DNA from: Candidatus Hermodarchaeota archaeon
GTDB lineage: Archaea; Asgardarchaeota; Lokiarchaeia; Sigyniarchaeales; SOKP01
Reading direction: 5' to 3'
DNA length: 10,075 bases
NCBI GenBank assembly: GCA_048885525.1
Contig: JBHLLP010000061.1
Location: 1 to 10,075 of the forward strand
This document shows, piece by piece, positions 2,181 through 10,075 of this stretch. The notes beneath the pieces were generated by a model, which saw only the letters and a list, made by a program, of their open reading frames with translations, was not told the origin of the DNA and ran no database searches. The position numbers were made by a program, and so were the translations under genes. Position 1 is the first letter of the stretch; every line of letters starts with the position of its first letter.

Positions 2181-2226
2181 AACCTTTTTATACAAGCTTG
2201 TATATATTCTCATACACAAATGTATA
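2181..2226 (+). promoter_or_regulatory. Putative BRE/TATA promoter overlapped by two ATACA-N4-TGTAT palindromic operator sites
   Basis: AACCTTTTTATA at 2181-2192. Perfect 16-bp palindrome TATACAAGCTTGTATA at 2189-2204. Second copy ATACA-CAAA-TGTAT at 2212-2225. Confidence 0.6.
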
Positions 2227-2272: not shown

Positions 2273-3361
2273 GTGGAATTCAAAATGATAATGCTTTCTG
2301 AGGGACCTTTTATTATTGCAATTATTAGAAGTATTAATTTTTTTTTCAGTTGTACATTAGGATTATTTTATATTTTCCAAGGAAGAAAGACAAAAACTAA
2401 GCTCCTCCTTTATTTTGGTATTTTTGTAGTGGGTTTAAGCGTATCTATGGGATTGGGAACTTTTATAGATTTTATAACTATCCTTATAACAGGAGATAAT
2501 ATGGACGGCCAATTAAAATTTTATTTAACGTGGGGACCCGCTGCTATTACTAGTATTTTTTTTGTTTATGTATTTGCTGAAATATTAATACCAAAAAAGA
2601 AATGGTATTTTTTATCTCTAATTTTAACATTGAATACACTCTATTTATTGGATCTATTTTTATTTCATTGGACGCCTCATATTATTATATATCCTGCAAC
2701 ACCCGGAGAAGATCTCATAATAGTCAGCTTTGCTTTACCACCAAATCTCGTTCCAGAACAAATCTTTCCCTGGAGGTTTATGGCTTTTAGCTCAACCTAT
2801 ACCGTATTCATCGGGATTGGTCTTATATATAAAACTTTTAGGGTAAAAAGAATGATTAGAAAAAAGTATTTCTATTTGTCAACAGCTATAATTATTCGTG
2901 GTATGGATCAGCTCTTTGGATATAGTCATCTCGAACAACCTTTTCCTGTCCCAGGTGCAATAATTAGAGCGATTATTGATATCATAACCACAATATTTGC
3001 ATATCTGGGTTTAAGAGCAGAACCTGAGCAGCGTAAAAAGAAAGTTAAAAAGAAGGTTACAACTGAAGATTCATTGTTTCGAATAATTGAGAGACCTGAA
3101 CATATTACCGAAGAAGAAGTTACATATTATCGGGAGCAAAAAATTTGCTTGATATGCAAAGGAAAAGTAGCTGGGTTTTATATTTTCATCTGTTCTAATT
3201 GTGACGCATTATATCATGAAGAGTGTGCCCGTGCGTTATCAACCATGGAAAATGCTTGCTGGGTATGTAATAATCCAATTGACAATACAAAACCAACAAA
3301 ACCTTTTAAAATGGTTGAAGAAAAAAAGGATATTGAAGAAAAAAATAAGAAATTAAATTAA
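2273..3361 (+). CDS. Seven-transmembrane protein with C-terminal C4HC3 RING/PHD-like zinc finger
   Basis: About 7 hydrophobic segments in aa ~12-247, a basic/acidic linker, then C292-x2-C-x11-C-x2-C-x4-H-x2-C-x10-C-x2-C332. The true start is probably ATG 2285 or 2291, because AGGTGG at 2271-2276 looks like a Shine-Dalgarno site rather than a GTG start. Confidence 0.85.
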   Translation: MEFKMIMLSEGPFIIAIIRSINFFFSCTLGLFYIFQGRKTKTKLLLYFGIFVVGLSVSMGLGTFIDFITILITGDNMDGQLKFYLTWGPAAITSIFFVYVFAEILIPKKKWYFLSLILTLNTLYLLDLFLFHWTPHIIIYPATPGEDLIIVSFALPPNLVPEQIFPWRFMAFSSTYTVFIGIGLIYKTFRVKRMIRKKYFYLSTAIIIRGMDQLFGYSHLEQPFPVPGAIIRAIIDIITTIFAYLGLRAEPEQRKKKVKKKVTTEDSLFRIIERPEHITEEEVTYYREQKICLICKGKVAGFYIFICSNCDALYHEECARALSTMENACWVCNNPIDNTKPTKPFKMVEEKKDIEEKNKKLN

Positions 3362-3405: not shown

Positions 3406-3894
3406 ATGGTTATAGAAATTTCGAAAGGTTTAAAGAGAACATTTTTAATTAACTTTATTGTATCTCTTGTCTTTGGAATTCTGTTATTCTTTATGGTAGA
3501 TATTTATTTGGACTGGTTCGGTGTTCATTTTAATGTTCCATTTTCTTTTATGGGAGGTTTATTTGGTGGAGCCCTCTTAGGCTATGCATGCGCTTCTTTT
3601 ATAGCATGGCAACAGACAGAATGGGACAAAGTAAAAATTGTGGTAATAATGGAGATCGTTTGGCATATACTAGGAGTGTACATTTTTTTTTGGTGGATTT
3701 ATGGGATTTTAGCAAATCCAAAATTCTCAGCTACTCATTATTTGTATACAAAAATTATACATTTGATATATCTCATAGTTTTTCTATGGTTCCTCGCAGC
3801 ATTCATCTTTTACTACGTAAAACATGAAAAGGAAGAACCCACAGCCAGAACCGATAGCGAAACGATACAAGTGACACCCGGTAAAACCGATTAA
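3406..3894 (+). CDS. Hypothetical 4-TM membrane protein
   Basis: 162 aa ORF with four hydrophobic helices and a strong SD. It lies 44 nt after the 7TM gene and may be co-transcribed with it. Confidence 0.8.
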   Translation: MVIEISKGLKRTFLINFIVSLVFGILLFFMVDIYLDWFGVHFNVPFSFMGGLFGGALLGYACASFIAWQQTEWDKVKIVVIMEIVWHILGVYIFFWWIYGILANPKFSATHYLYTKIIHLIYLIVFLWFLAAFIFYYVKHEKEEPTARTDSETIQVTPGKTD

Positions 3895-4805: not shown

Positions 4806-5690
4806 TTATTTTAAACCATATTTTTCCAAAAACGAAGTTAATCTAGTTCGATGGAATTTTAATCCTAAATCATCAGCTTTTTCACCAAAAACAAGAGCAA
4901 GCAATTCAGTAACATACAATATTGGAATATCAAAACTTTTTCCTCCTACTTCTCCCGCTTTTTTCTGGTTGTTATCAAATTGTTGGAAACATGCTGGACA
5001 ATTAACAATCATAACCTCTGCGCCTGCATTAATAGCACTTGATAACTTGTTTGATAAAATTTGCATTGAAGGTTCCTCTTCTGTATTCCCTGTTCCTGTA
5101 CCACAGCAAAGCATTTCTTCTTCATAATCTACTGGAGTTACCCCAGCTGCAGAAACAATTTCTCTTAATTTAACAGGGTTCATAGGATCGTCAGTTTGAA
5201 CCTTTTCTGATGGTCTATTATAGTGACATCCAGTATGACAAGCAACTTTCAATCCACTTAGTTCTTTTGTTACATTCTCCTTTATTTTATCAATATATTC
5301 ATGTAATACTTCTACAAAATGTTTCACATTAATAGTACCTTTGAATTCTTTCCCGATTGTTTTAAGGATTTTATTTATGTGTTCTTTTTCATGATCATCA
5401 TGCTTTAATTCTTCATTAACAAGCTTTAATGTTTGAAAACATCCATTACATAAAGAAATGATATTTTTTCCTTCAGCTTCGGCAATAGTAAGATTCCTTG
5501 CACCCATTGCCATCCAGCTTAAATGATCAGTGCTATTAAAGCCAACTGGATCTGGACAACATGCAAAAGCGGCATCAGAAGTACTTATTCCAAGTTTATC
5601 AAACACTTTTCTAGCAGATGCTTCAATAAAAGGAATTCTGTTGCCTATAACACATCCTTGAAACATTTTATATTCTTCTGCTTTAGCCAT
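4806..5690 (-). CDS. hdrB: Heterodisulfide reductase subunit B (two CCG domains)
   Basis: First CCG domain: FQGC...CCPDP...ARN...SLCNGC. Second CCG domain: VACHTGCH..RP...CCG.G...VNCPAC..QFD..Q...IPILY..ELLAL. 294 aa is the typical HdrB length. Confidence 0.93.
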   Translation of the reverse strand: MAKAEEYKMFQGCVIGNRIPFIEASARKVFDKLGISTSDAAFACCPDPVGFNSTDHLSWMAMGARNLTIAEAEGKNIISLCNGCFQTLKLVNEELKHDDHEKEHINKILKTIGKEFKGTINVKHFVEVLHEYIDKIKENVTKELSGLKVACHTGCHYNRPSEKVQTDDPMNPVKLREIVSAAGVTPVDYEEEMLCCGTGTGNTEEEPSMQILSNKLSSAINAGAEVMIVNCPACFQQFDNNQKKAGEVGGKSFDIPILYVTELLALVFGEKADDLGLKFHRTRLTSFLEKYGLK

Positions 5691-5802
5691 TTTAAGTTAT
5701 CTCAAGTTTTTTGTTATTAACAATAATTTGTATTTGTAAATATTGAATTTTTTAAAAATCTTCTCTCTATTAATTTAGAATAATAATAGTATAATTATGA
5801 AT

Positions 5803-5811
5803 AAAAAAAAA
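5803..5811 (-). terminator. Putative U-tract terminator after fdhD
   Basis: A9 on the + strand (T9 on the - strand) about 28 nt downstream of the fdhD stop. Confidence 0.35.
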
Positions 5812-5838
5812 TATTGAAAAATCTAAAGAATCTAATAA

Positions 5839-6693
5839 TTATATAATTATCCTTTCAGGATGAGAATAAATATTCATTCTTGATCCACGCGCAAAACCTA
5901 TCAGTGTAATCCCATATGCGAACGCTAATCGGATCCCTGACTCAATAGCTGCTGAAAGCGAAGCTACAATAGGGATTTTTGCTCTTATTGCTTTTAAAAC
6001 TGAATCTCCTGTCAATCTACCTGTTGAAGTTAAAAATATCTCTTCAAATTTTAGTTCTTTTAACAACATTTCTCCAATTACTTTATCAATAGCATTATGC
6101 CTACCAATATCTTCTTTCACACTCAGAATATTTCCATTAATATCAAATATTGCTGCTCCATGACAACCACCGGTCTCTCGATAAAGGGGAGTTGAAATTT
6201 GCATTGTTTTTATAGCAGAAAAAATAACGTTAGCTTTAAGCTTTATTTTATTTTTTGATTTTATTATATCCTTGGTATTAGCCTTATCCAAGCTTTCCTT
6301 AATTATATTTCGCCATGGAGATGATATTCCACAGGTCGTATCAACTACTCGGCTTACGGGATTAACATCGAGTTTTTCAAAATTTAACTCAATATCCTCT
6401 GTTAAATCCACAAAAATAGAATTATCTAACTCATCTAATTTAATTTCTTTAATGTCCTTGATTGAATCGATTAATCCTATTGAAAATAAAAATCCTATTG
6501 ATAATTCTTTTAAATCTTTAGGTAGACAAATAATATTTACAAGACGTTTGGAATTTACATATAAATCAACTGGATTCTCAAAAAGAACTAGATCTTCTAG
6601 TTCCTTTTTCTCAGTTTTTTTTATTTGAGTAATATTTACTTTTCGCTTAAACAAAATTCCATCCCAAATCGAAGTTATTGATTCAATTATCAA
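5839..6693 (-). CDS. fdhD: Formate dehydrogenase accessory sulfurtransferase FdhD
   Basis: Motifs E-N-P-V-D-L-Y-V-N, P..LKELSIGFLFS.G, TTCG, TGGCHGAA, EDIGRHNAIDKVIG, TGRL, SLSA, and ITLIGFARG.RMNIYSHPERI. The TTG start at 6693 is uncertain; an in-frame stop lies at 6709-6711. Confidence 0.93.
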   Translation of the reverse strand: MIIESITSIWDGILFKRKVNITQIKKTEKKELEDLVLFENPVDLYVNSKRLVNIICLPKDLKELSIGFLFSIGLIDSIKDIKEIKLDELDNSIFVDLTEDIELNFEKLDVNPVSRVVDTTCGISSPWRNIIKESLDKANTKDIIKSKNKIKLKANVIFSAIKTMQISTPLYRETGGCHGAAIFDINGNILSVKEDIGRHNAIDKVIGEMLLKELKFEEIFLTSTGRLTGDSVLKAIRAKIPIVASLSAAIESGIRLAFAYGITLIGFARGSRMNIYSHPERIII

Positions 6694-6752
6694 ATAATGT
6701 AAAGAAATTTAATTAAATATTGAATAATTCTTTTTTCTAATAAAGAGAAGTC

Positions 6753-7391
6753 CTATTCTTTATCAAAACTATTTCCACATTCACTGCAGATCTGAGAATT
6801 AAATGGTAAAGATGCTCCACAATTTGGACAATATATATTTTGAAAGGGTATTGGGGGTTCTGCCGAAACCTCCCTTTCTACTTTAATATCCTCTCCCTCT
6901 TCTGCCCGTTTTTCTTCTTCCTTAACTTTCGGTGGTTTTACTTTCTTTATAAAAGCTCGTCCTATTATAGCTATAACTACCCCCAAAAAACCCACTCCGG
7001 AGCCATAGTCGAATTTATTATAAAGATCATCCAGAATTTGGTCATACGGCGGATCTATTACAATTCCTGTGAAATTTACTACTTGAGTAATTATCCATAT
7101 AATTAAAGCTGCTGTACCAAAAGCTAACCCAATCCATATTATAAATTTCCCGAACCTCAGTGCACCTAATGCAATCAATATTGCTCCAGCAATTATTGCT
7201 ATTCCTCCTAAATCTGCAATCCACCTAAATATGATATTAATTAACAAGTTAAAAAAGGGTTCGTAATCAGGCCATTGAGCTGCGACCATCTCATAAAGAG
7301 ATTCAAATACTTTAATACTTCCAATTACAGAACCAAAGATCATACATATTCCGCCGATAATTAATAAAATAATTCCTGTTTTATGCTTCAT
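6753..7391 (-). CDS. 4-TM membrane protein with C-terminal zinc ribbon
   Basis: Four hydrophobic helices, a charged linker, then CPNCG-x8-CSECG. SD-like TGAGGA at 7406-7401. Confidence 0.85.
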   Translation of the reverse strand: MKHKTGIILLIIGGICMIFGSVIGSIKVFESLYEMVAAQWPDYEPFFNLLINIIFRWIADLGGIAIIAGAILIALGALRFGKFIIWIGLAFGTAALIIWIITQVVNFTGIVIDPPYDQILDDLYNKFDYGSGVGFLGVVIAIIGRAFIKKVKPPKVKEEEKRAEEGEDIKVEREVSAEPPIPFQNIYCPNCGASLPFNSQICSECGNSFDKE

Positions 7392-7435
7392 GAAATTTCT
7401 TCCTCATTTAAAATTTCTTTTTTGAAGTGACCTTA

Positions 7436-7451
7436 AATAATTATAACCTTT
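7436..7451 (-). promoter_or_regulatory. Putative BRE/TATA promoter for the zinc-ribbon membrane gene (and possibly fdhD)
   Basis: The minus strand reads AAAGG-TTATAATT about 50 nt upstream of ATG 7391. The AT-rich background limits certainty. Confidence 0.4.
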
Positions 7452-7602
7452 ATTTGTTTGTAATATTTTTTTAAATTTAAACAATTATCTGTTTATTTTG
7501 TTTAATAAAAAAGTAATTCTCAGCATAGAATCAAGTTGTAGTTATACAATTTGGATGTGTATAAATGTTCATCCTTTTCCCTCTAACAAATTATATTAGT
7601 AT

Positions 7603-8454
7603 TTAAACGGCAACGTATAATCTGCCATTAGAGCTTTTTGATACTTCTCCGGTTTTTTTATCAATTTTGGAATGATTTTTCTCAACAGAATGATCTCCGC
7701 TATATTCAATAAATTTTCCTTGAATTTTTTCTCCACTCATCAATTCAATTTCTTTTACCTCTCCTAACTTTTTATAGGAGGGAAGAATTCTCGAAATTTT
7801 GCCCTTTACAACTATTGTTCCCCGTACTTGATCTGCTCCAATACATCTATCACAATCACCTTCTACAATAATAGTGCCTCCATGACTATGAATTCCTAGA
7901 AATGATCCAGCACCACCACAAATTAATGTTGGAAACCGTTTGGCTGGTTTTGATCCGGTTACCCATGATAACGCTTCATTCCCAATCTTACCCTTTACTT
8001 TAATTAACCCATTTTCCATTCCCTTCCAAAAACCTCTGTATGCTGCACCAACATAATGTCCAGCATTACCAGTAATTTCTAATTCTCCACCCTTTAACAT
8101 AGCACCTGCCCAATCGTCAGCATCACCATTTACTAATATCTTTCCTCCTGACATATTATTTCCTACATGCATCCCGACATTACCATTTATAACAATTTCT
8201 CCACCTGTCATTTTTTCTCCTATTCTCTTAACATTTGAAACGTCTCCCTCAATTATAATTTTGGTATCGTTGATTTCTCCTCCATTTCCTGAAATATTAA
8301 AAAAATCTCCTAAAGTTTTTTCCTCATTTCCGTGATAAACTATAAGCTTCTTAATTTCAGCTGCTGATTTTCCAGAGAATTTATCTGGTGATATAGTTTC
8401 AGCTTCTAATGGATATTCAGGATTTTTTTTTAATTCTAACTTAACTTCTGCCAT
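7603..8454 (-). CDS. fwdC: Formylmethanofuran dehydrogenase subunit C
   Basis: PLEAETISPD, GN....LGDFF and GDVSNVKRIG..M..G, followed by GxGxxMxGG beta-helix repeats and VGAAYRG...GM..G. Confidence 0.95.
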   Translation of the reverse strand: MAEVKLELKKNPEYPLEAETISPDKFSGKSAAEIKKLIVYHGNEEKTLGDFFNISGNGGEINDTKIIIEGDVSNVKRIGEKMTGGEIVINGNVGMHVGNNMSGGKILVNGDADDWAGAMLKGGELEITGNAGHYVGAAYRGFWKGMENGLIKVKGKIGNEALSWVTGSKPAKRFPTLICGGAGSFLGIHSHGGTIIVEGDCDRCIGADQVRGTIVVKGKISRILPSYKKLGEVKEIELMSGEKIQGKFIEYSGDHSVEKNHSKIDKKTGEVSKSSNGRLYVAV

Positions 8455-8458
8455 ACAT

Positions 8459-9784
8459 TTATTCCCCCTTTTTACTTTTTACAGCTTTTATTAATCTCTC
8501 TAATATTTCTTCGTCAGTTAAACATTCACCAGGTGCTTCTTTAACCTTTCTTAGTCTTAATGGTACACTATCCATACGATATGCTGTACCTTCACATTCA
8601 ATGCCAGCTATAGCAGGTGGTAAAATAATATCTGAATTCACAGATGTTGGTGTATGGTGAGGTTCAATTGTAATTATAGGATGTTTAAACAAATTCCTTA
8701 CTGCCGCAGCTGGAAAATTACTTGCTGGATCAGAAGCAACAATAAGAGATGCATCAATTTCATCCTTTAATAGAACATCTACAGAGGAAAATTCTCCGGG
8801 GTTATAACGCGGATATCCCTTTGAGAAGTCTATAGAATAGGAATATCCTGTTTGCCATGAAAATACTTGATTTGCTCCAGCAACATTATAATGTCCCCGC
8901 ATAGGGGTTAGTAAAAATTTAGTATGATCATTTAACTCGCGTACAAGACAAATTGCAGCATCAATGTTCCTATGATGTGATAAAGTTTGAGTTAATCCCA
9001 TTCCGAAAAAAATAACTCCAAATTTACATGATTTTAAAGCATTAACTAATTCTATGATTTTATCTTTTGGAACTCCTGAAATTTCATCACCATCTAATTC
9101 AACACCTCTTAATGTTGCCCTTATTGCATTAATTAATTCATAATCTTCACTTGGATTAACTTGAATATGGATGTCAGCTAATTGAGCTGTGTTCGTATTT
9201 CTCGGATCCACAACTATAATAAATCGATCATTTCTCCCATCTTTTCTAAAATATCCTCGAATAAAGTCGCTATACCTTCCTAGGTGTCGTGGATGTGCAT
9301 GAACAGGATTACTACCCCAAAATACCACTAGATCTGCTCTATTTTTATATTCACCTAAAGTAGACGTAGGTGCACCAACATCTTGAATTGCTAGTAATGA
9401 AGGACCATGACATACTGAAGCTGTATTATCTAAAATCCCTCCTAATAATTCTGCTAATTCCACACCCTTTCCTTGAGCCTCACATTCAGTACTTGAAAAT
9501 CCATAAAGTAATGGTCTTTTCGTATTTACTAGAATATCAGCTGCTTTGTCAATCGCTTCATCCCATGTTACTTCTTTAAATGAACCATTATCTTTAATAA
9601 GGGGTTTTTCATATCTATGTTTACTCGGATTGGACGAGAAATATTTCTTAGTGCCGATTTGGCATCCGTTTCGAACTTCTACTACTTTTTCCTCTTTTAT
9701 ATCAATATCTATTTCTAGATCATCACATAAAGTACCACAAAAGGGACAAATTACATCAGTAACAGTTCTAATTTTTTCTACCAT
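8459..9784 (-). CDS. fwdB: Formylmethanofuran dehydrogenase subunit B (W/Mo-bis-PGD catalytic subunit), Cys form
   Basis: CPFCGTLCDD...C [4Fe-4S] motif. DNTASVCHGP metal ligand (TGT, Cys). TLGE.KNRAD.VVFWG.NP.HAHPRH..RY, MRGHYNV.G, RYNPGE and GTAYRMD.VP. SD GGAGG upstream within the fwdD end. Confidence 0.96.
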   Translation of the reverse strand: MVEKIRTVTDVICPFCGTLCDDLEIDIDIKEEKVVEVRNGCQIGTKKYFSSNPSKHRYEKPLIKDNGSFKEVTWDEAIDKAADILVNTKRPLLYGFSSTECEAQGKGVELAELLGGILDNTASVCHGPSLLAIQDVGAPTSTLGEYKNRADLVVFWGSNPVHAHPRHLGRYSDFIRGYFRKDGRNDRFIIVVDPRNTNTAQLADIHIQVNPSEDYELINAIRATLRGVELDGDEISGVPKDKIIELVNALKSCKFGVIFFGMGLTQTLSHHRNIDAAICLVRELNDHTKFLLTPMRGHYNVAGANQVFSWQTGYSYSIDFSKGYPRYNPGEFSSVDVLLKDEIDASLIVASDPASNFPAAAVRNLFKHPIITIEPHHTPTSVNSDIILPPAIAGIECEGTAYRMDSVPLRLRKVKEAPGECLTDEEILERLIKAVKSKKGE

Positions 9785-9787
9785 CTT

Positions 9788-10075
9788 TTAAGCCTCCCTT
9801 AATAGATTAATTAAATTTACGGCATCCAAAACTTTTCCACCCGGTACTGCCTCTACTCGTGCCTTCATCCCTTTATATGTAGGAGTACCGCATGATTGAG
9901 AGTCAGGATTGACTACTTGATTAGCCCAAGGACCCATTGGAATAAAAATAATTCCTGGATGTGGACCTTCTTCAGAAATCGTAGAATATACTACAACTTC
10001 ACCATAATCTGTAGACACTTTAACTGGTGTTCCAACAAGGCAGTCTAATTTCTTGAAATCCTCTTTATCAAAAGC
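9788..10075 (-). CDS. fwdD: Formylmethanofuran dehydrogenase subunit D (5' end outside window)
   Basis: The frame stays open to the right edge (AFDKEDFKKLDCLVGTPVKVSTDYGEVVV...), so the ORF-track start at 10018 is an internal GTG. Motif GIIFIPMGPWANQVV...CGTPTYKG. It ends 3 nt before fwdB. Confidence 0.93.
   Translation of the reverse strand, partial: AFDKEDFKKLDCLVGTPVKVSTDYGEVVVYSTISEEGPHPGIIFIPMGPWANQVVNPDSQSCGTPTYKGMKARVEAVPGGKVLDAVNLINLLREA

Follow-up and report, generated by a model that had tools for sequence, protein, structure and literature searches.

The window, i.e. the whole stretch of 10,075 nucleotides of archaeal DNA analyzed here, contains a gene (2273..3361, + strand) for a protein in which a seven-helix membrane domain (7TM) is joined to a C-terminal zinc finger. 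This protein is probably a membrane-bound RING E3 ligase that serves a dedicated ubiquitin-like (Ubl) cascade specific to its lineage. The evidence was obtained by computation and comprises fold and topology of the protein, co-occurrence of its finger module with one particular E2, gene linkage in relatives and intact motifs of the linked gene cluster; additionally, an interface between RING and E2 is predicted.

The 7TM-RING gene and its surroundings

The open reading frame is intact and was called with 362 amino acids. Its true start is probably ATG 2285, giving a product of 358 amino acids, because GGTGG is found at 2272-2276, residues 1-4 are absent from homologs and the Atlas record begins at residue 5. 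The host genome comprises 3.58 Mb with 29% G+C; together with the named homologs (see below), this marks the host as a Lokiarchaeia-type archaeon. The exact window protein is absent from the contig index, and no RNA holder was listed. A sequence search identified 112 homologs, the named ones belonging to Promethearchaeota and other Asgard bins, and 518 cluster representatives of the finger module were found at E ≤ 1e-10; thus, the 7TM-RING feature is not a product of chance.

Two ATACA-N4-TGTAT palindromes (2189..2225, no strand assigned) are located 5' of the gene as a candidate operator. The palindrome is also present at G000 C76:6776 upstream of the other His-type 7TM-RING paralogue and may represent an operator common to both; the looser pattern ATACA-N4-6-TGTAT has 28 matches genome-wide, hence a single site is weak evidence. 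Downstream, an unannotated four-helix membrane protein of 162 amino acids (3406..3894, +) is encoded in the same direction. It is paired with a His-type 7TM-RING in the window, on contig C76 and in genomes G178, G183 and G065, and is a candidate partner or substrate. The region 4806-10075 (-) carries formylmethanofuran dehydrogenase-like B/C/D, FdhD-like and HdrB-like genes and a gene for a 212-aa membrane protein ending in a C-terminal zinc ribbon, all recognized by eye and unrelated to the 7TM-RING finding.

Seven-helix membrane domain

The window protein was modeled with AlphaFold2 from a 96-row homolog alignment (mean pLDDT 86). The first-pass annotation had counted about seven transmembrane helices; the model contains exactly seven long ones (residues 10-39, 43-73, 79-105, 107-131, 161-188, 194-221 and 225-247), which form a domain (residues 10-247; 2300..3013, +) of N-out/C-in topology with a possibly GPCR/rhodopsin-like helix arrangement. 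Lys and Arg are concentrated in loops 1, 3 and 5 and after helix 7. According to the positive-inside rule, the N-terminus is therefore located outside and the finger in the cytoplasm, as had been supposed. Helix 7 (residues 225-247) contains no Lys and thus lacks the retinal-binding Lys of microbial rhodopsins, and no family in Pfam or NCBIfam covers the 7TM.

A Pro-rich loop between TM4 and TM5 and polar residues within the helices had also been pointed out. The outer loop is present (residues 132-160; 2666..2752, +) with a beta-hairpin (strands 137-139 and 150-152) and is a candidate lid over a sensing pocket, but only P141 and G145 are strongly conserved (≥90%) and residues 156-161 are an insertion peculiar to the window copy. 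Of the intramembrane polar residues inspected, the homologs conserve only D66 (D/E in 96/96), E103 (72/96) and Y244 (96/96) together with an Arg of TM7 (63/96), but not R19, N22, N121 and D127. A Lys-rich cytoplasmic linker (residues 248-274; 3014..3094, +) follows, modeled mostly with low confidence (pLDDT <50 at 256-264).

Fusions were identified through genome searches; word-index searches with the 7TM alignment gave crowded results and no longer fusions, which is weak evidence. The 7TM was found in all 15 family members tested, mostly tailless, and is also fused to TIR_2; that it occurs tailless or with TIR counts against the E3 reading. Sister 7TM sequences with RING and with TIR share 41% identity over 308 aa. 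In the 7TM tree, a strongly supported clade contains carriers of both domains, and the RING label must have changed three times or more to agree with the starred branches (midpoint root, used for drawing only).

RING finger

The mobile finger module consists of a conserved pre-RING segment with a helix (residues 275-291; 3095..3145, +), the finger itself (3146..3268, +) and a conserved tail (P335, D337, K340, P341; 3269..3295, +), with N333 at the linchpin position. The zinc ligands C292, C295, C307, C310, H315, C318, C329 and C332 are spaced exactly as first read from the letters. These eight ligands, C4-(C/H)-C3 in RING-type spacing, are conserved in 93-96 of 96 homologs. The earlier assignment as C4HC3 holds for the window copy but does not describe the family: among the 96 7TM homologs, 49 have Cys and 46 have His as ligand 5, which is His in two of the 17 module copies of the host genome, and nearly always Cys in non-7TM fusions, so that most of the family is C4C4. 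Judged from these alignments, His is a subfamily variant and the family pattern is C4C4/C4HC3. Membership in RINGv (MARCH/Doa10) is not supported, as ligand 5 varies and RINGv (PF12906) is not among the Pfam families listed for the window protein or its homologs.

RING had been favored over PHD, and the model agrees. A structure search with the finger yielded RING/U-box folds, the HRD1 RING among them; residues 316-325 form a helix after ligand 6, and the position of the PHD Trp, two before ligand 7, is occupied by Asn327 (93/96 homologs). A lipid- or peptide-binding PHD or C1 domain would agree with the best Pfam matches (C1_1, C1_2 and PHD, all below cut-off), with the best single-sequence PDB matches, which are PHD fingers, and with NCBI automatic names such as 'PHD finger domain-containing'. 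However, these sequence matches reflect Cys spacing only; the PHD identity was rejected after the fold search and, given the central helix and the missing Trp, we consider such a domain highly improbable. The modeled finger is a cytoplasmic RING. Prok-RING_1 (PF14446) matched the window protein with 15.9 bits (cut-off 29.1) and 40 of the 96 homologs weakly. None of the PADLOC models covers the window protein, the E2 described below (E2c) or its Ubl.

Several features argue against an E3. Non-catalytic or structural RINGs (GATOR2, CesA, TFIIH p44) are among the close structural matches. Hydrophobic residues are present, as in active RING E3s, before ligand 2 (residue 294, V, I or M in 96/96 homologs) and on the central helix (Leu322, 91/96), but this Leu stands where Trp is common, and Trp330 after ligand 7, invariant in alignment A2, replaces the canonical Pro. 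This Pro and a cationic linchpin after ligand 8 are typical of active RING E3s, although not universal. Of 245 proteins, 163 have N as the linchpin residue, 37 have D, 21 have E and 7 have G; none has R or K. In RNF38, N, D, E and G are the four weakest substitutions at this position; RBX1 is active despite Asn (PMC12326332). The archaeal ligase srfp requires I30, W58 and R69 (PMC5654768), and in the window RING its helix Trp is replaced by Leu and its Arg by Asn.

Distribution and exchange of the finger module

The host genome contains 17 copies of the RING module. Four reside on 7TM-family domains; two of these are intact, a stop interrupts another and the end of a contig truncates the last. 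TPR-like solenoids carry six copies, beta-helix proteins with TM two, and enzyme-like domains assigned by eye another two; three are fragments or stand-alone. Strong matches across the phylum were confined to the host genome's own family, and the copy number per genome varied from 0 to 24. No near-identical DNA or common flanks were found among the copies (65-80% identity), hence no recent transposon-like spread is seen.

Members of a large solenoid family have RING, TIR or a carbon-nitrogen hydrolase at their end. As RING gives way to TIR or to the hydrolase on homologous scaffolds, the module behaves as an exchangeable output domain.

Some further loci were recorded. A 7TM-RING paralogue at G000 C11:77173-78219 is broken by one TAG stop, and TPR-RING genes at G000 C33:2193-6436 and C33:10296-16924 stand in tandem with a small GTPase resembling Rab, and with more TPR genes. 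Fusions of 7TM and of solenoids to TIR_2 occur at L074-L078 and L139:4440-7799, and G099 has several 7TM-TIR genes without RING module and without E2c. Solenoid and longin-GTPase proteins with a terminal carbon-nitrogen hydrolase domain (L089:71-1336, L152:114-2753) often lie within or beside the Ubl cluster; the hydrolase is possibly a third output, perhaps a deamidase. Other C4HC3 fingers in G000 (C31:11357-11671, C25:1610-3658, C61:11528-14524, C7:107354-110165, C2:11895, C62:1) include two RINGs of the canonical Trp/Pro type; the others form a group of longer-finger proteins of 360-445 aa, probably vWA fusions.

A dedicated Ubl cluster linked to the module

The first-pass annotation had noted that Asgard archaea encode ubiquitin, E1 and E2; the host genome encodes three E2s, five ThiF/E1 proteins and several Ubls. 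Coupling to a ubiquitin-type pathway had been proposed as well; the partner cascade found is a dedicated JAB-E1-E2-Ubl cluster and not the core ubiquitin genes. At C37:27311-30608 the order is longin-GTPase, JAB, E1 and E2c, the third E2 (C37:27611-28192), facing a Gly-Gly Ubl; the whole region C37:27311-31644 (L003, L090) comprises two longin-GTPases, JAB, E1, the divergent E2 and Ubl. The catalytic motifs are intact. The Ubl has no Pfam match over cut-off, and the longin-GTPase is not a G-alpha by Pfam. Gene order is kept in nearly all of 28 relatives, and among 150 genomes of the phylum the cluster was not found outside the own family.

E2c is present in 29 of 61 genomes, all 29 of which carry the RING module. 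Nine of the 61 have the module only, eight of them being 64-89% complete. Among genomes of at least 90% completeness, module and E2c are concordant in 43 of 44 (24 both, 19 neither); in the sole exception, G109, RING, JAB and E1 run off the contig at a break. Concordant splits occur within four genera (permutation p 2e-4, kin not being independent). The Ubl has the same presence profile as E2c; the main E2 (C16) is nearly universal and does not track the module.

Furthermore, in 16 of the 28 relatives, from three genera, the gene immediately upstream of the Ubl encodes a RING and has the same orientation. Two of these 16 RING genes are fragmentary, and in three of the remaining loci the sequence stops at the Ubl. 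These RING genes have 7TM, 9TM or zinc-ribbon N-termini and occur in up to three tandem copies. By rough arithmetic (median about four copies per 3.5 Mb), chance proximity is expected in <1% of genomes. In the host genome, the window gene lies on a different contig from the cluster and none of its module copies adjoins it; the Ubl role of the window gene is therefore inferred from its family. This distance, and the fact that related genomes are not independent, weaken the E3 reading.

The linkage data raised the odds of the E3 reading over our initial reading of the finger as a p44-like non-catalytic module. In such an alternative, the finger would be a structural zinc finger for protein contact, like the C4C4 RING of TFIIH p44, with no Ubl role, and the linkage would arise because the site is a hot spot for insertions or because module and cluster are mobile together. 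This is contradicted by the co-presence of module and cluster even where no copy adjoins the cluster (host genome, G177, G159, G178, G185), the concordant splits inside four genera, the three different N-termini beside the Ubl gene and a co-fold that passes at the canonical E2 surface (see below). We regard this alternative as improbable and prefer the membrane E3.

Other Ubl loci were observed. Another divergent Ubl locus, the second of its kind, has no E1/E2 in its vicinity (L146, L147, L148, L149); it contains a winged-helix-like regulator, a Ubl and a GTPase-related gene, and in three of four cases a multi-TM RING gene. At G000 C47:7779-8570, a membrane protein with a terminal ubiquitin-like domain lacking Gly-Gly is encoded beside a Ub/E1/E2/JAB cluster. 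Two Ubls, at the C47 cluster and on C35, end in a single Gly.

Predicted RING-E2c interface

The RING module was co-folded with E2c alone among the three E2s (C16, C37 and C47). The score was 0.63 as compared to 0.01 for the best control and passed a mark reached by 58 of 80 solved but only 2 of 110 mismatched pairs; as RING-E2 is a textbook pair, this pass may reflect likeness to solved RING-E2 pairs. The runs shared at least 85% of contacts, with partner pLDDT ≥79. Predicted contacts involve RING residues 293-297, 317-318, 321, 325-326 and 330-331 and, on E2c, helix 1, whose contact residues are invariant, and loop 7; loop 4 was not named. In the co-fold, Trp330 meets Arg124/Leu125 of E2c, which replace the loop-7 Pro-Ala. 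This pairing had been noted as possible beforehand and is suggestive.

The same data would be expected if the module bound E2c without acting as a catalyst for other proteins and thereby subjected the protein carrying it to the Ubl system, either as a portable cis recruitment tag (self-tagging degron or sorting signal) or as a BARD1/BMI1-like inactive partner. Cluster linkage and co-fold are equally compatible with this, the cationic linchpin is absent, and the module is joined to unrelated hosts, among them enzymes and fragments of genes, which make unlikely substrate adaptors (ATC hydrolase, C_GCAxxG_C_C, LRR, beta-helix, TPR). However, the majority of hosts resemble sensors or scaffolds (7TM, 9TM, TPR, LRR, beta-helix with TM), the swaps for TIR or carbon-nitrogen hydrolase on homologous scaffolds are the behavior of an output domain, and self-modification would be E3 activity anyway. 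We therefore judge this explanation unlikely, and retain the E3 ligase.

Proposed mechanism and significance

For the window protein as an E3, we infer catalysis and substrate as follows. The C37 cluster would supply the tag: JAB would trim and mature the Ubl, its E1 (E1c) would activate it and E2c would then carry it. The cytoplasmic RING would dock E2c at helix 1 and loop 7, and the acceptor of the Ubl would be either the 7TM protein, for instance in its Lys-rich linker, or a neighbor in the membrane. Tentatively, this activity may be gated by the 7TM as it senses a ligand or the state of the membrane.

More speculatively, and in our opinion rather doubtfully, the family may run a eukaryote-like receptor-ligase network, with sensors (GPCR-like 7TM, 9TM, TPR, LRR and beta-helix ectodomains, up to two dozen per genome) sharing one co-adapted RING-E2-Ubl pair, TIR or amidase as swaps, and a ligand at the 7TM switching on tagging, possibly in an immune-type or membrane-sorting response tied to the longin-GTPase. 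Bacterial Ubl operons are antiviral (PMC10557695); by analogy, patchy presence, swings in copy number and TIR swaps would fit a defense role.

If the E3 reading is true, a receptor-shaped membrane E3 that has an E1, E2, Ubl and protease of its own would show an Asgard lineage to have expanded its E3s around one E2, by domain shuffling as in eukaryotes but apparently independently. To our knowledge, those RING ligases of archaea that have been tested are small and soluble. A RING-E2 pair that dispenses with the linchpin Arg and operates via a Trp-Arg swap would further be informative on RING mechanism, and the parts are small, named and expressible, which makes membrane-directed Ubl signaling in archaea directly testable. 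The narrow distribution of the module limits its bearing on eukaryote origins, and it is no evidence for ancestry of eukaryotic membrane E3s.

Comparison with known systems

Soluble archaeal RING cascades, rare bacterial RING-E3 operons (PMC10557695), Asgard 7TM proteins and the extensive shuffling of domains among ubiquitin-related proteins of Asgard archaea are already known. In the openly accessible literature covered, no description of the 7TM-RING architecture or of the Ubl cluster was found. As here, a RING accompanies clustered Ubl, E1, E2 and JAB in the Ub/E1/E2/srfp/Rpn11 cascade of Ca. Caldiarchaeum subterraneum (PMC5654768) and in the E1/E2/RING cascade of Helarchaeia (bioRxiv 10.1101/2023.07.25.550441), and the E2s share a loop-4 Pro-Tyr and the HPN motif. 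In contrast, the E3s of those two cascades are small and soluble with a helix Trp and a linchpin Arg (shown for srfp), whereas the window RING is a multi-copy module on membrane and solenoid domains with Leu, Trp and Asn at key positions; its E2 is divergent, and its Ubl scores below the Pfam cut-offs.

MARCH/Doa10 RINGv, Hrd1 and RNF145-type ligases also combine a multi-pass membrane domain with a cytoplasmic RING. In MARCH/Doa10 the RINGv is N-terminal, and the membrane domain of the window protein resembles the GPCR/HisKA_7TM arrangement, unlike that of eukaryotic polytopic RING E3s. As the module was found in only one Asgard family, the likeness points to convergence and not ancestry. Burroughs et al. 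(2011) are said to have described Prok-RING_1 as bacterial membrane-associated RINGs beside E1/E2/JAB/Ubl genes. Prok-RING_1 (PF14446) shares with the window system the prokaryotic origin, the TM helices and the link of the RING to genes of a Ubl system, and the window system differs by its archaeal 7TM fusion, large paralogue expansion and longin-GTPase in the cluster. The C4C4 RING of TFIIH p44/Ssl1 (PDB 1z60) has identical ligand spacing, with Cys at ligand 5 as in most module members; the window protein lacks the vWA domain and TFIIH context, and its ligand 7 is followed by Trp and not by Pro. A class C GPCR-like cluster has been mentioned along with Asgard 7TM proteins (bioRxiv 10.64898/2026.10.28.762692), and both HisKA_7TM (PF16927) and class C GPCR-like folds combine, like the window protein, an N-out/C-in seven-helix bundle with exchangeable cytoplasmic outputs.
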